Shown here in pieces: positions 26,921 to 34,079 of a stretch of DNA of 34,079 nt. The stretch covers positions 1 through 34,079 of the forward strand of contig CALVRY010000001.1 in the NCBI GenBank assembly GCA_944358755.1, read 5' to 3'. How positions within the stretch are numbered: position 1 is the stretch's first letter; each line of letters begins with the position of its first letter. This DNA is from an uncultured Bacilli bacterium. GTDB taxonomy: Bacteria; Bacillota_I; Bacilli_A; RFN20; CAG-826. A program made the position numbers and the translations under genes. Below the pieces are notes generated by a model. The model did no database searches and was not told the DNA's origin. It saw nothing but the letters and a program-made list of their open reading frames with translations.

Positions 26921-28906
26921 TTAAATCATTTTTTCGACTTCAAGTGCAATTTTATCTGCTGTAAAGCCAAATTCTTTAATTACATCTTTTGCATTAGCAC
27001 TTAAACCAAATTCATCAATTCCAAAAACGTGTTTAGCATATTTATGAAGACCATAAGGTATGCTCATTTCGATAAATGCTCTCTTTTCATATCTATTTCC
27101 AAGAACACTAAATTGATAATTTAATGGTTGAGCATCGAATAATTCAACGCAAGGCATTGAAACAACTCTAATGCTATATCCTTTATCTTCAAGTATTTTT
27201 TTAACTCCAAGAGCCAAGCTAACTTCACTTCCGCTAGCAATCAAAGTGAAATTGAGATTTGGTTTGCTTTCTTTAGAGACAATATATCCACCTTTATTTG
27301 CTGCTTCAACATTACTATTATCAAGTAAAGGTAAATCTTGACGAGAAAGTATAATTGCTGAAGGTGTTTCAAGTGAATTAAATGCAGATTTATAAGCTGC
27401 AAATACTTCTCTAGCATCTGCAGGTCTAAAAACATTTAAGTTTGGTATAGAACGAAGCATTGCGAGTTGTTCAATAGGTTGATGAGTTGGTCCGTCTTCT
27501 CCAACCGCGATTGAATCGTGGCTAAATAGATAAATATTTGGTAATTTTTCTAAAGCAGACATCCTAATTGCAGCTTTGCAATAGTCAGCAAAAACCATAA
27601 ATGAGCCAACATATGGTCTTAAACCACCATGTAATAAAATTCCATTAGCTGCACTAGACATGAAGAATTCTCTAATTCCCCAATTAATGTTTTTGCCATT
27701 TCTATTTTTAGGTGTCCAGTCAGATTCACCTTTTAATGTGGTTTTAACACTTCCTGCAACATCGGCTGATCCACCAAATGTATTAGGCAAGACTTTTGCA
27801 AATAAATTTAAGATCTCACCAGATGTATTTCTAGTTGAATTCTTTTTAAGAATTGATTCAGGGAGAGGCAAATTGTTTACATATAATGAAACATTATTTG
27901 TGCTTAAAGACATAATTTCTTTAAATAAAGATGGTTTTGTCTTTTGAAGTTTAGCCATATTACTTTGATAATTTGAATAAGCTTCTTCGCCACGAGCAAT
28001 AAATGTTTCTTTGAAATTGTCGTAAACTTTTGTAGGAATTTCAAAATCAGGGAAATCATATCCGTAGGATAATTTAGCTTTTCTTCCATCTTCAACGCCA
28101 AGTGGAGCACCATGAACTTTTGAAGTTCCTTGATTTTTCGACCCTAAACCTATAATTGTTTTAAAAATAACAACTGTAGGCGCTTTTTTATTTTTTCTAG
28201 CTAGATTGATAGCTTTTCTAACTTTTTTATAGGAATTACCTTTTGTGCAATAAACAACGTTCCAATGACAAGCTAAGAAACGATTAATGACATCTTCATC
28301 ACTTGATTGAGCTAATGGACCATCAAGAGTTACATCATTTTTATCATAAAGAAGGATTAATTTATTTAATTTATGTAAACCTGCGAAAGAAATTGCTTCT
28401 TGAGAAATGCCTTCTTCTAAGCAACCGTCGCCACAAAGACAATATGTATAGTGATTGTAAACATTTTTTCCATACATTGCTTGAAGTTTGGTTTCAGCCA
28501 TTGCCATACCAACTGCTTGAGCAATTCCTTGTCCAAGAGGCCCACTTCCAGCATCAATTCCGTCAGTTAAACCATATTCTGGATGGCCTGGAGTAATTGA
28601 ATGAAGTTGTCTAAAATTCTTTAAATCATCAAGTGTGATATTATATCCAGCTAAATGAAGAATTGTGTAATAAAGCATACTTCCATGCCCACAACTCATT
28701 ACAAATCTATCTCGATTAATCCATTTTGATTGATATGGGTTAGCAACAAGGAAATCTTTAAAGAGTGAATATACGATTGGTGCGGCACTTATACACATTC
28801 CTGGATGTCCGCTTTTTGCTTTATTGATGCCGTCAATACAGGTTGCACGAATTGCAGCGATTGATAATTCATCAATATTTTTGAAATTATTTAGTTTTTT
28901 AGCCAT
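26921..28906 (-). CDS. tkt: transketolase
   Basis: 661 aa with a GHPG motif, the ThDP-binding GDGCLEEGIS, and a conserved Pyr domain (FGIREFxM-like GIREFFMS). Confidence 0.95.
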   Translation of the reverse strand: MAKKLNNFKNIDELSIAAIRATCIDGINKAKSGHPGMCISAAPIVYSLFKDFLVANPYQSKWINRDRFVMSCGHGSMLYYTILHLAGYNITLDDLKNFRQLHSITPGHPEYGLTDGIDAGSGPLGQGIAQAVGMAMAETKLQAMYGKNVYNHYTYCLCGDGCLEEGISQEAISFAGLHKLNKLILLYDKNDVTLDGPLAQSSDEDVINRFLACHWNVVYCTKGNSYKKVRKAINLARKNKKAPTVVIFKTIIGLGSKNQGTSKVHGAPLGVEDGRKAKLSYGYDFPDFEIPTKVYDNFKETFIARGEEAYSNYQSNMAKLQKTKPSLFKEIMSLSTNNVSLYVNNLPLPESILKKNSTRNTSGEILNLFAKVLPNTFGGSADVAGSVKTTLKGESDWTPKNRNGKNINWGIREFFMSSAANGILLHGGLRPYVGSFMVFADYCKAAIRMSALEKLPNIYLFSHDSIAVGEDGPTHQPIEQLAMLRSIPNLNVFRPADAREVFAAYKSAFNSLETPSAIILSRQDLPLLDNSNVEAANKGGYIVSKESKPNLNFTLIASGSEVSLALGVKKILEDKGYSIRVVSMPCVELFDAQPLNYQFSVLGNRYEKRAFIEMSIPYGLHKYAKHVFGIDEFGLSANAKDVIKEFGFTADKIALEVEKMI

Positions 28907-30665
28907 TATCCTTCTCCTTTATAACTTCAATTCCTAATTTATCTAATTGCTCTTTATCAACTTCATAAGGAGCATTGGAAACTGGATCAACTGCAGCTAA
29001 ATTTTTAGGGAAGGCAATAACATCACGAATATTATCTGTTCCACTCAAAATCATCGCTAGTCTATCTAAACCACAAGCAAATCCACCATGTGGAGGTGTG
29101 CCATATTTTAATGATTCAACGAAGAAACCAAATTTTTTATTGATATCTTCTTGAGTAAATCCAAGGACTTTAAATATCATTTCTTGAACTTTTTGGTCGT
29201 AAATTCTTAAAGAACCACCGCCAGCTTCATATCCATTAATGACAATATCATAAGCATAGCTATAAACGTTATATGGTTCGGTGAACAATTTATCTATATC
29301 TTCATCACATGGTCTTGTGAATGGATGGTGACAAGGTGTAATTTCGCCTGTTTCTTCGCTCTTTTCGAATAAAGGGAAATGTACAACCCAGAGCAAATCA
29401 TAAGTATTTGGTTTAATTAAACCTAATTCTTTAGCAAGTGTACTACGGACAGCACCTAAGCCGAAGTTAATATCTCTTAAAATATTACCGGTTGCAATAA
29501 TAAGTGCGTCGCCTTCATTAACTTCCATTGCTTTTTTTAGTTCTTCTTGAAGTTCAGGAGAAATAAATTTAGCAATACTTCCTTCAAATGCACCATTTTC
29601 ATATTTAAGGTATGCAAATTGTTTCATATTAAATTTTGGTGCAATTAAGTTGATAGTATCTTGTCTCTTTCTGCTTAAATCTTTAGCAAAATTTTCTACC
29701 TTGATCGCCTTAATATATTTGTTATCTTGATATAATTTGAATTCAGATCTACTAAGAATGTACTTAATATCTACTAGAAACATACTAAAACGTGTGTCTG
29801 GCTTATCAGAACCATATTTATTTACTGCTTCAAGATAATCCATTCTTCTTAAAGGTAATTTAACATCAAAATCGATAACATCTTTGAAAATTTTAGCGAT
29901 AAGTCCTTCTCCTAAAGATAAAATTTCATCTTGATTTAAAAAGCTTGTCTCAACATCGATTTGTGTAAAATCAGGTTGTCTATCTGCTCTTAAATCTTCA
30001 TCTCTGAAACATCTAGCGATTTGATAATATCTTTCAAATCCTGCAACCATAAGCATCTGTTTATAAAGTTGAGGAGATTGAGGTAATGCATAAAAAGAAC
30101 CTTTATGCACTCTACTTGGTACTAAATAATCTCTCGCGCCTTCTGGAGTTGATGGAGAAAGATAAGGTGTTTCAATTTCAATAAAATCATGCGAATCAAG
30201 ATATTCATGAGTAGCTTTAACGATTTTTGCTCTAATTTTAAAGCGGCGTTGCATACAGTTTCTTCTTAAATCAAGATATCTATATTTAAGACGAATATCT
30301 TCATTAGCATCAGTTACTTCTTGAGTTGAAATTGGAGGTTGCATTGCAGTATTAATTACTTTAATTTCACTTGCTAAAACCTCAACTTCTCCAGTTGCTA
30401 AATTTTTATTTGAAACATCTTTTTTACTAACAATCCCTTTAACTTGAAGAACATATTCGTTTCTAATATCAGGAAGCTTGATTTCATCAGTTTTTACGCA
30501 AATTTGAACATAACCTTCTCTATCTCTTAAATCGATAAAAAGAAGACTTCCTAAATTACGCTTTTTAGAAACCCAACCTAATAAAGAAACTTCTCTACCT
30601 ACATCTTTAAGACGTAAAGTTCCACAATAATCAGTTCTAACGAACTTTTCTTCAACGTTTTCCAT
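28899..30665 (-). CDS. aspS: aspartate--tRNA ligase
   Basis: I prefer the start at ATG 30665 (MENVEEKFVRTDYCGTLR). It gives 588 aa and leaves a 20-nt spacer after hisS. Class II motifs are present (FRDEDLRADRQPDFTQ, GGFACGLDR). Confidence 0.9.
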   Translation of the reverse strand: MENVEEKFVRTDYCGTLRLKDVGREVSLLGWVSKKRNLGSLLFIDLRDREGYVQICVKTDEIKLPDIRNEYVLQVKGIVSKKDVSNKNLATGEVEVLASEIKVINTAMQPPISTQEVTDANEDIRLKYRYLDLRRNCMQRRFKIRAKIVKATHEYLDSHDFIEIETPYLSPSTPEGARDYLVPSRVHKGSFYALPQSPQLYKQMLMVAGFERYYQIARCFRDEDLRADRQPDFTQIDVETSFLNQDEILSLGEGLIAKIFKDVIDFDVKLPLRRMDYLEAVNKYGSDKPDTRFSMFLVDIKYILSRSEFKLYQDNKYIKAIKVENFAKDLSRKRQDTINLIAPKFNMKQFAYLKYENGAFEGSIAKFISPELQEELKKAMEVNEGDALIIATGNILRDINFGLGAVRSTLAKELGLIKPNTYDLLWVVHFPLFEKSEETGEITPCHHPFTRPCDEDIDKLFTEPYNVYSYAYDIVINGYEAGGGSLRIYDQKVQEMIFKVLGFTQEDINKKFGFFVESLKYGTPPHGGFACGLDRLAMILSGTDNIRDVIAFPKNLAAVDPVSNAPYEVDKEQLDKLGIEVIKEKDNG

Positions 30666-30685
30666 ATATTTCATACCCCATTTCA

Positions 30686-32074
30686 TTAAGCTTTTTTGCA
30701 GCAACCATCATGATGATGACAGCAATGACCTTCTTCATGATCATGTTTGCATTCACAATCATCGCCTTCACAACATTCACATTCGTGGTGGTGATGTTCG
30801 CTCTCGCTATTAAAATATTTCCCTAAAAAATCATCTAAATCATCTAATTTGACACTAACTTGCTCTTTAGTATCTAATTTTTTAACAGTTACTGTTTCAT
30901 TAAGAATTTCATCATCTCCAATAATAAAGGCTAATTTTGAATTTCTTCTCTCGGCCTTTTTAAACATTTGACCCATTCCTTTTTGTTCGTAACAAACTTC
31001 ACAAGAATAGAATGCTTTTCTTAGTTGGAAAGCAAGTCCTACTGCAAAATCTCTTGCTTTATCACCCATTGGCATAATAAAGATGTCAGTTGTATTATCT
31101 AAATTAGGGAAAAGATTGTCATCTTCCATAACTTTTGCAAGTCTTTCAATACCAAATGCAAATCCAACACCTTCTAAATCAGGTCCACCAATTTCTTTAA
31201 TAAGATTTCCATAGTGGCCACCAGCGCCAATTGCGCCATAATTATTTCCGTTTTGTGAAGTATAATGGAATTCGAATACAACTCCAGTGTAATAATCAAG
31301 GCCTCTAACTAATTCTTGATCAACTTCAAACGGAATTTCTAATTTCGTTAAGTATTCTTTAACTTTTTCAAATCTTTCTTTAGCAGCATCAGTTAAATAA
31401 TCTTGAATTTTAGGAGCTCCATCAATAATTGGCCTATCAGCCGGATCTTTACAATCAAGAATACGAAGAATGTTTAATTTATAACGTTCTTGGCAATCAG
31501 AACACATATTTTCGATATGTTTTCCAAAATATTCTTTTAAAGCAGTTTTATAATTTTCTCTACTTTGTTCATCACCAAGTGTGTTAATTAAAAGTTTAAC
31601 TTTACCAAAATTAAGATATTTAAGCATTGTATATCCAAGAGCAATAACTTCAACATCTCGTTCAACAGTTGTTACACCTGTACATTCGATACCAAATTGA
31701 TTAAATTGTCTATATCTTCCTTGTTGTGGTCTTTCATAACGGAAGTTTGGTCCACAATAAAAAGCTTTAACAGGATAATCTTGAATAGCAAAAAGTTTTG
31801 CATTAACCATGCTTCTAATAATTCCTGCTGTCATTTCAGGTCTTAAAGTTATATTTCTTCCACCTTTATCTTCAAAAGTATACATTTCTTTTCTAACAAT
31901 ATCGCTACTATCGCCAACCGAACGTGTGAACAAATCACTGCTTTCAATTACAGGAGTTCTGAATTCTTGATAACCATAAATAACAGCGATATTTGTCATA
32001 ACTTCTTCGATATAAGAGTACTTCTTTGCTTCTTCTTTTATGACATCGTGTGTTCCTTTTACAACATTAAACAT
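30686..32074 (-). CDS. hisS: histidine--tRNA ligase with a C-terminal Cys/His-rich extension
   Basis: 462 aa with a canonical HisRS core (KGTHD, RPEMT, FRYERPQQGRYRQF, GGRYD-like GAGGHYGN). A 41-aa tail follows: NSESEHHHHECECCEGDDCECKHDHEEGHCCHHHDGCCKKA. Confidence 0.9.
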   Translation of the reverse strand: MFNVVKGTHDVIKEEAKKYSYIEEVMTNIAVIYGYQEFRTPVIESSDLFTRSVGDSSDIVRKEMYTFEDKGGRNITLRPEMTAGIIRSMVNAKLFAIQDYPVKAFYCGPNFRYERPQQGRYRQFNQFGIECTGVTTVERDVEVIALGYTMLKYLNFGKVKLLINTLGDEQSRENYKTALKEYFGKHIENMCSDCQERYKLNILRILDCKDPADRPIIDGAPKIQDYLTDAAKERFEKVKEYLTKLEIPFEVDQELVRGLDYYTGVVFEFHYTSQNGNNYGAIGAGGHYGNLIKEIGGPDLEGVGFAFGIERLAKVMEDDNLFPNLDNTTDIFIMPMGDKARDFAVGLAFQLRKAFYSCEVCYEQKGMGQMFKKAERRNSKLAFIIGDDEILNETVTVKKLDTKEQVSVKLDDLDDFLGKYFNSESEHHHHECECCEGDDCECKHDHEEGHCCHHHDGCCKKA

Positions 32075-32097
32075 ATTAAAAACCTCAATTCCTAATA

Positions 32098-32127
32098 ATT
32101 ATAAATAATTATTAACCCTTCTATCAA
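32098..32127 (-). promoter_or_regulatory. candidate sigma-A promoter for hisS-aspS
   Basis: The minus strand reads TTGATA-N18-TATAAT. A GAGG SD (32083-32086) lies downstream. Confidence 0.35.
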
Positions 32128-32137
32128 GTTAATAGCA

Positions 32138-34079
32138 CTAATGAATAACTCTTTTTACTTCGTAAATATCTTTTGTGCTAGTTAAAATACTTTCGACGTG
32201 ATTTAAAACGTTGGCATCACTAACATAAATTTGAGCATAAACGCTTGTTCTATTGGTATCTGGATGCATTTTAGCTGTCATTTCAGTACATTTAATCTTA
32301 TTTGAATTAAAGATATTTAAAATATCCGCAACTAAATTTTGACGATCTATACATTCGATAACAATATCAACTGGATATGATTTAATACCTAGATTTTCTT
32401 TCCAATGAACAGGAATTAATCTGTTTCTTAATCCTGTTACATTAGGGCAATTAATTCTATGAACTGTTATACCATTACCTTTTGTAACATAACCTACAAT
32501 GTTATCCCCTGGAATTGGCGTACAGCAATTTCCTAAGGTAATTTTAAAGCCAGTTTGACCATCAACAGTGACTGGGCAATTGTCGTCATCAAAGTTTTCT
32601 TTCTTAAAAAGTTTATTAAAATTATCGTCTTTCCTTTTAATTCCTAAAAAGTCTGCAATTTGACTTGGGTTAGGATTATGAGCACAAATTTGAATGAATA
32701 AGTCCTCAATAGTAGAAGATTGGTAGTTTTTTAGTACTTTTTCAGTATTTAATAAGTTCATCATTTCTCTTTCGTCGATACCTCTATCTTTGAAAAAGTC
32801 CTCTGCTATTTGTTTTCCTTGTCTAATTTTATCGTCTCTTAAATAGAGAGCGTTCTTCTTTTGTAAGAACTTTTTAATGTGACTTTTAGCACTATTTGTT
32901 TTAACAATATTTAACCAGTTTTCGTTTGGACCAGGTGATGTTTTTGAAGTTCTAATTTCGACGATATCACCTGTTTTTAAGACTGTATTTAATGGAACAA
33001 GATTTCCGTTAACCATTGCTCCTATTGCAGAATCACCAACTTTAGTATGAATTTTATAAGCTAAATCTAATGGGGTCGAACCATTTGGCAAATCGATGAC
33101 TTTTCCTTTTGGAGTAAAGACATAAACATTCGCTTCAAAAATATCTTTACTTAAAGATTCCATATATTCAGTCGCACTCTTATTTTGAGTTTCGCTATTT
33201 ATATGTAAGAAATCACGGAACCAATGAAGTTTTTCTTCAATTTCATGTTGCTCTTGTTTTGGACTATAATGACTTCCTTCTTTATATCTCCAGTGAGCTG
33301 CAACACCAGTTTCAGCAATTTCATCCATCTCTTTAGTACGAATTTGAACCTCAAAGATATTTCCATCACCTGCAATAATCGATGTATGTAAAGATTGATA
33401 CATATTTGGTTTAGGCATTGCGATATAATCCTTAAATCTACCAGGAATAGGTTTAAAATGTGCGTGAATCAAGCCTAAAATTTCGTAACAATTTAATTCT
33501 GTTTCGGTAATAATTCTTAAAGCTAAAAAGTCATAAATTTCATCAAATGTATGGCCTTTTAAATACATTTTCTTATAAATTGAGTAAATTGACTTAATAC
33601 GAGACTCAATTTCAAATTTTATATTTTGTTCAATTAAAATATCAGCTATTTTTTTCTTTAAATTGTTTAACGCTCTTGTTCTATTTTTAATTTTTTCATC
33701 AAGTTCGCGAGCTATTGCATGATATTCATCAGGTTTTTCGACTTCTAGAGATAAATCTTCGAGTTGACTTTCAACTCTATAAATACCTAAACGGTGGGCA
33801 ATTGGAGCAAAAACTTCAAGAGTTTCTTTAGCAAGAGCATGTTGTCTTTCAGGTTTAAGCGCCTTAACTGTTCTCATATTATGAAGTCTATCAGCAAGTT
33901 TAATAATAATAACACGAACATCTTTTGCCATACCTAAAAAGATTTTTTTATGATCTTCAGCTGCAAATTCCTCTTCGGTTCTATGTGAAAGTTTCAATCT
34001 TTGAATTTTTGTCAATGCATCAACAATTCATGCGCAATCTTCTCCATATAATTTCTTAATATCATCGATTGTGGTTTCA
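32138..34079 (-). CDS. relA: RelA/SpoT-family (p)ppGpp synthetase/hydrolase, 5'-partial, with an in-frame TGA at 34028-34030
   Basis: The 625-aa ORF carries the HD-domain end (DRLHNMRT) and the synthetase, TGS and ACT regions. The same frame continues upstream of a single TGA as ETTIDDIKKLYGEDCA*IVDALTKI. That segment aligns with the B. subtilis RelA sequence ...FGSEVAMLVDGVTKL. Confidence 0.8.

Follow-up and report, generated by a model that had tools for sequence, protein, structure and literature searches.

SlyD, an FKBP-type PPIase of Escherichia coli and Helicobacter pylori, has a C-terminal tail that binds several Ni, Zn or Co ions, and the protein cooperates with HypB in hydrogenase maturation. 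Aminoacyl-tRNA synthetases, for their part, often gain appended domains with new functions. In HspA, the GroES of H. pylori, a His/Cys-rich C-terminal extension binds Ni in vitro; cells in which this extension is deleted are viable, contain less Ni and are more sensitive to it (PMC3856676). The extension is dispensable for the core function of HspA and acts in Ni storage and delivery (PMC3856676).

Here, a tail of comparable composition was analysed at the C-terminus of a bacterial histidyl-tRNA synthetase (HisRS). Like HspA, this HisRS is an essential housekeeping protein with a terminal, apparently unstructured extension rich in His and Cys. The two hosts, a co-chaperonin and an aminoacyl-tRNA synthetase, share no sequence homology; compared with HspA, the HisRS tail contains more Cys and more acidic residues, its metal binding is only putative, and it occurs in hundreds of species, while the HspA extension is found in one genus. 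The SlyD and HisRS tails are both C-terminal, disordered (in HisRS by prediction), roughly 40-50 residues long and rich in His, Cys, Asp and Glu, but the host folds differ, and the resemblance is one of composition, not of homology. To our knowledge, the HisRS tail has no partner of the kind that SlyD has in HypB. With metallothioneins (bacterial SmtA/BmtA and eukaryotic) the HisRS tail shares CxC, CC and CCC motifs, ca. 20% Cys, small size and a scarcity of aromatic and aliphatic residues, and tails of relatives with up to 24 Cys (L034 and P0057) resemble fused metallothioneins. Unlike classical metallothioneins, the tail has far more His and Asp/Glu, is fused to an enzyme rather than free-standing, and matches no Pfam family. 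A literature search of incomplete coverage found no account of a metallothionein-like, SlyD-like or His/Cys-rich tail on a bacterial HisRS, in keeping with an earlier sequence-only reading of this DNA, which knew of none. The novelty would thus plausibly lie in the host: an aminoacyl-tRNA synthetase carrying a His/Cys-rich tail of the putative metal-binding type.

The gene lies in a 34,079-nt stretch of DNA from an uncultured Bacilli bacterium of low GC content that lives in the gut; this stretch was analysed as a whole and is referred to below as the window. Its relevant features are as follows.

30686..32074, minus strand: hisS coding sequence, histidine--tRNA ligase, 462 aa plus TAA (open reading frame, TIGR00442, 1qe0)
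31139..32056, minus strand: class II catalytic core, aa 7-312 (PF13393 tRNA-synt_His, 2.2e-41; AlphaFold2 confident over most of its length)
30824..31087, minus strand: anticodon-binding domain, aa 330-417 (PF03129, 1.4e-17)
30689..30811, minus strand: tail of 41 residues rich in His, Cys, Asp and Glu, aa 422-462 (DNA read directly)
30666..30685, minus strand: hisS-aspS spacer, 20 nt, with a GGGG Shine-Dalgarno-like run (DNA read)
28899..30665, minus strand: aspS, aspartate--tRNA ligase, 588 aa, downstream partner of hisS (open reading frame; equivalent in L081)
32075..32137, minus strand: rel-hisS spacer, 63 nt, without a T-box leader (Rfam scan of the window)

On the evidence of profile and structure matches, the hisS product is a histidine--tRNA ligase, a class IIa aminoacyl-tRNA synthetase, and not HisZ, the ATP-PRT regulatory subunit. 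The hisS equivalog profile TIGR00442 scored 453.6 bits (cut-off 286.75) over aa 4-409, and Staphylococcus aureus HisRS (1qe0) aligned to residues 1-417 with E=7e-109; the hisZ profile TIGR00443 scored 171.8 bits, under its cut-off of 271.65, and the protein has the anticodon-binding domain. Its core is orthologous over the full length to the canonical bacterial enzymes (S. aureus 1qe0, E. coli 1kmm). In these the chain stops no more than a few residues from the final helix of the anticodon-binding domain, whereas the window HisRS extends 41 residues further. Since the core profiles and 1qe0 all end by aa 417, residues 422-462 are extra, and the sequence-only reading was right to place the tail after a complete anticodon-binding domain.

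The 421 residues of ordinary HisRS, which end in ...LDDFLGKYF, are followed by NSESEHHHHECECCEGDDCECKHDHEEGHCCHHHDGCCKKA, a 41-residue sequence with 10 His, 9 Cys, 8 Glu and 4 Asp. Ten of the 14 His codons of hisS fall within these last 41 codons. The frame is uninterrupted down to the TAA stop at 30688-30686; the open reading frame and a direct reading of the minus strand agree on this and on the 10 His and 9 Cys, as had been claimed. A separately translated tail peptide was considered and rejected, since no in-frame ATG, GTG or TTG lies ahead of the tail in the window. The aspS gene starts with ATG at 30665 (ATG GAA AAC...), 20 nt past the hisS stop. In L081, a 92% identical relative, an in-frame stop interrupts the ATGs upstream of this position, so that the ATG at 30665 is the true start, and the 20-nt distance given in the sequence-only reading stands. 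The aspS gene of L081 is called at the equivalent ATG, and its product has domains PF01336, PF00152 and PF02938.

On the other side of hisS, rel, which codes for a RelA/SpoT homologue, contains an in-frame TGA (window 34028-34030, minus strand; ...GEDCA*IVDALTKIQRL). The matching codon in L081 is CGA (Arg), and Rel of L081 is intact (754 aa). Rather than recoding, the TGA looks like a single C-to-T nonsense change, which would be either a sequencing error or the mark of a pseudogene at strain level.

The HisRS tail is real and not an assembly artefact. The 90% identity cluster of the window HisRS has 28 members; the 15 listed members share a length of 462 aa and derive from a variety of contigs and samples, and none of them differs at any of the 9 Cys positions. 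It is this recurrence of one 462-aa protein, on dozens of contigs assembled independently, that speaks against an artefact. In two adjoining species-level clusters (468 aa, 169 members; 472 aa, 86 members), tail length is likewise fixed, and a single singleton Cys change was seen in each. Nor is the composition due to chance: with the frequencies found in the cores of relatives (1.2% His, 1.7% Cys), a 41-residue stretch would include 19 or more His/Cys with a probability of ca. 8e-19. A six-frame scan of the 34-kb window revealed no second coding-frame stretch equally rich in His and Cys, and in 547 kb around hisS from 80 relatives a stretch of this kind occurs in hisS only. A general His/Cys bias was therefore rejected as an explanation.

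Absence of the tail from close relatives, which the sequence-only reading had named as fatal to the finding, was not observed. Comparison with orthologues, as it had proposed, revealed an acidic tail with His and/or Cys, 8-90 residues long, in all 120 best database relatives (58-99% identity), at least two His being counted in each. The tail is a clade-wide feature, versions of which are carried by hundreds of related gut Bacilli; with the Erysipelotrichaceae included, it is found in hundreds of species-level clusters from gut and rumen. The shortest extensions read EEHHHE (429-aa forms, including MAGs labelled Candidatus Onthovivens and Mollicutes), and the longest among these 120 relatives, that of P0057, has ca. 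90 residues with 24 Cys and 17 His. The pooled composition of 46 distinct tails is 21% His, 19% Cys, 20% Glu, 14% Asp and 9% Gly. These five amino acids make up 84% of tail residues, and aliphatic and aromatic residues are almost absent; relative to HisRS cores, His is enriched roughly 18-fold and Cys 11-fold. Of the 46 tails, 27 have five Cys or more. Orthologous HisRS carry tails with His only, with Cys only or with both; His-only tails are common, and the P0028 and P0011 tails have 9-10 Cys with zero or one His. Among the 150 best HisRS representatives at 50% identity, only seven have at least five His/Cys in the last 30 residues (among them P0121, P0122, P0123, P0125, P0129 and the fragment P0197). 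Another HisRS representative, P0186, is 1029 aa long and has an AspRS-like C-terminus (...IAFPKT...), which points to a fused hisS-aspS gene product or to read-through in the gene call.

A tree of 80 species-representative loci was built from core columns only (quick IQ-TREE, SH-aLRT supports). A clade of 40 rows (support 100), made up of uncultured gut and rumen Bacilli, contains only HisRS with an acidic extension, 7-99 residues long. The window belongs to a 31-row subclade (support 95), in which 21 rows have at least three His+Cys; outside the 40-row clade this holds for only three of 40 rows, all of them Erysipelotrichales. In the nine basal rows of the 40-row clade the acidic tails contain at most one His, and those of two inner sublineages (L015-17 and L009-14) are nearly devoid of His/Cys (at most one Cys). 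In Acholeplasmataceae, Clostridia and Peptostreptococcaceae, HisRS ends 0-6 residues past the last helix. Judged from this distribution, the His/Cys tail appears to have developed from a C-terminal extension that is older and acidic, and the function of the acidic tail is probably the ancestral state.

The separate Erysipelotrichales branch (L039, L042 and L073) has His-rich tails too. A search with L042 revealed at least four His/Cys in the last 28 residues of 94 of 119 relatives, including proteins that NCBI names Amedibacillus sp. and Longicatena sp., and an H-x-CTCG-x3-CTCG-HHH motif recurs in many of them. The deep nodes of the tree lack resolution, so it is compatible with both a single and a separate origin of the Bacilli and Erysipelotrichales tails. 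Three rows of the tree call for separate comment. The hisS genes of L038 ('Bacteroides uniformis') and L032 ('Lachnospiraceae bacterium') nest in the uncultured Bacilli clade, L038 being almost identical to L026, and these two bins are probably mislabelled or contaminated. HisRS of L018 has no tail and breaks off abruptly (...IKNMRTRAI) within the final strand of its anticodon-binding domain; its hisS may be a frameshifted or truncated gene in the MAG.

The window and L081 were also compared by the Nei-Gojobori method. The core gave a dN of 0.024, a dS of 0.392 and an omega of 0.062, and the tail a dN of 0.059, a dS of about 1.0 and an omega of 0.057, the tail values being based on small counts (9.5 synonymous and 6.5 non-synonymous differences). 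Of the changes that affect the 19 His/Cys codons, seven are synonymous (TGT/TGC, CAT/CAC) and one is a replacement (His to Gln). These values place the tail under purifying selection. A scaffold, E-H-x-H ... C-x-CC-(E/G)G-xxC-x-C ... variable (DC)n ... EEG-HCC-HH-x-x-C-x-KA, can be aligned among the eight nearest genus-level relatives, and the frame and composition of the tail are kept across all indels. A clear case of tail growth is seen in L034 (4353-4532): its 99-residue tail contains a Cys-rich unit of 32 residues that is repeated as a result of a tandem duplication of 96 nt (1.9 copies, 90% match). No DNA tandem repeat was found in the tail of the window, and a recent slippage origin was rejected for it on this ground. 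Because indels and tandem duplication resize the tail over the acidic extension, only its composition and a few CxC, CC and HHH motifs are kept at long range. As these alignments present it, the tail is conserved within species and genera and is remodelled between genera with its composition retained; it is a fast-evolving yet selected feature of the clade.

In a metal-free AlphaFold2 model built from a 25-sequence alignment, the core is confident, the last helix of the anticodon-binding domain spans residues 410-426, and pLDDT is 27-29 for residues 424-462. The tail is thus predicted to be disordered, at least in the metal-free state. A Pfam scan of five tails, with E up to 10, produced no match, metallothionein profiles included. 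A search of PDB chains with the tails yielded nothing significant, the sole weak match (3mml_B, E=0.39) being on the His-rich part, and a protein-database search with residues 422-462 alone recovered only the window's own cluster, as the word index cannot reach low-complexity relatives. As far as these searches reach, the likeness to known metal-binding tails is compositional, not homologous. The window tail has the composition by which metallothioneins are operationally recognised (22% Cys, 9/41; CEC, CC and CxC motifs; no aromatic residues in 422-462). As in SlyD, HspA and Hpn, it is a terminal extension, predicted to be disordered, that follows a complete core and is dominated by His, Cys and carboxylates. 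Its composition also agrees with that of the HypB tail, and on this point the sequence-only reading is supported.

We propose, with a probability of roughly 0.6, that the tail is a disordered multidentate metal-binding appendage of the SlyD/HspA/Hpn/HypB/metallothionein type, placed on the C-terminus of HisRS. Between lineages, His and Cys interchange while hydrophobic residues stay excluded. Such replacement fits metal ligation and counts against His-codon sensing and redox-only roles; metal ligation is favoured because it is the sole property that would explain the interchange of His and Cys beside carboxylates in a disordered tail. Each tail offers 19 soft or borderline ligands, which makes 38 in the HisRS dimer; these would chelate several divalent ions, with Zn, Ni or Co as candidates and Cu(I) or Fe as further possibilities. 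Metal could be buffered or handed over by the tail or, by conjecture, stored in it, in gut Bacilli that are anaerobic and have small genomes, and the host offering its free C-terminus for this would be an abundant, essential and dimeric housekeeping enzyme. HisRS catalysis is probably independent of the tail, because sister lineages lost or never gained its His/Cys content. The sublineages without His/Cys (L009-L017) further indicate that the function of the tail is dispensable or replaceable.

Several other explanations were weighed against metal binding. It is possible, though clearly less probable, that the tail acts as a switch, metal loading or thiol oxidation altering tRNA-His binding, the dimer state or the stability of HisRS and so coupling charging to metal or oxygen. 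A sensor of this sort, in contrast to a passive metal store, would tie translation and, through uncharged tRNA-His and the neighbouring rel, the stringent response to Zn/Ni availability in a large group of uncultured gut Bacilli, an extension that we regard as equally tentative. The tail leaves the last helix of the anticodon-binding domain directly in the AlphaFold2 model, is strongly acidic, and has HisRS specifically as its host across two large clades; histidine, moreover, is a major metal ligand in the cell. Tail length, however, ranges from 8 to about 100 residues, and few positions are conserved from one genus to another, which is difficult to square with a precise allosteric contact; in addition, some sublineages lack His/Cys. 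A role in redox chemistry only is disfavoured, as His-only tails are common. Rather less likely still is an acidic tail that serves tRNA discrimination or solubility, a polyanion near the anticodon-binding site in which His and Cys are secondary. The acidic extension is indeed present throughout the 40-row clade, and His/Cys are missing from it in nine basal members and two inner sublineages, but the ca. 18-fold enrichment of His and 11-fold enrichment of Cys, and purifying selection on exactly these codons, would be left unaccounted for. Rapid change in tail length between genera and the duplication in L034 are what a functionless low-complexity expansion by replication slippage would produce, and an assembly or frameshift artefact was considered together with it. 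Both are largely refuted, and we hold them very improbable: the tail omega is 0.057, the Cys positions do not vary among 15 independently assembled cluster members, the window tail has no tandem DNA repeat, frame and composition survive all indels, and AT-rich drift would have produced the opposite composition.

The abundance of His codons at the 3' end of hisS could also be read as a translational histidine sensor, in which ribosomes stall at low His-tRNA, tune hisS-aspS expression and replace a T-box. The 10 of 14 His codons in the last 41, the start of aspS just 20 nt downstream and a hisS without a T-box in the window are all in its favour. T-boxes were searched for with Rfam in the window and in the loci of 60 relatives. 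At the gathering threshold, the whole window gave no match, so no T-box lies ahead of hisS, and the RF00230 element that would define a T-box-regulated hisS-aspS operon is missing upstream. Directly upstream of hisS, T-boxes (RF00230, 97-151 bits) were found in four tail-bearing loci (L037:2352-2552, L039:2755-2952, L042:2763-2961 and L073:2751-2950), and they also precede tail-less hisS in L043, L063 and L068; most of the other 53 loci scanned, tailed and tail-less alike, lack one. Loss of the T-box is patchy across these Bacilli. Substitution of the tail for a T-box was rejected, since L037, L039 and L042 have both of them and many outgroups have neither. An RNA element in the tail-coding region was rejected as well, the fold z-score being +0.48. 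A histidine sensor is therefore hard to credit, and we give it very little weight: a T-box and a His-rich tail occur together in three loci, many tail-less outgroup hisS genes also lack a T-box, so that there is no anticorrelation, orthologous tails with 9-10 Cys contain 0-1 His (P0028 and P0011), the RNA of the region is structurally ordinary, and the conservation of Cys would not be explained.

If the tail does bind metal, an essential enzyme of translation would also serve the metal economy of organisms with reduced genomes. Tailed HisRS would be expected among the proteins that co-purify in IMAC, and metalloproteomic surveys could be distorted by it. Experimental access to the question is offered by cultured Erysipelotrichaceae, in which related tails occur. 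Downstream of hisS-aspS in one Erysipelotrichaceae MAG (L042:6084-6190), a match to 6S RNA was observed, with a score of 48.4 bits that is barely over the gathering score.
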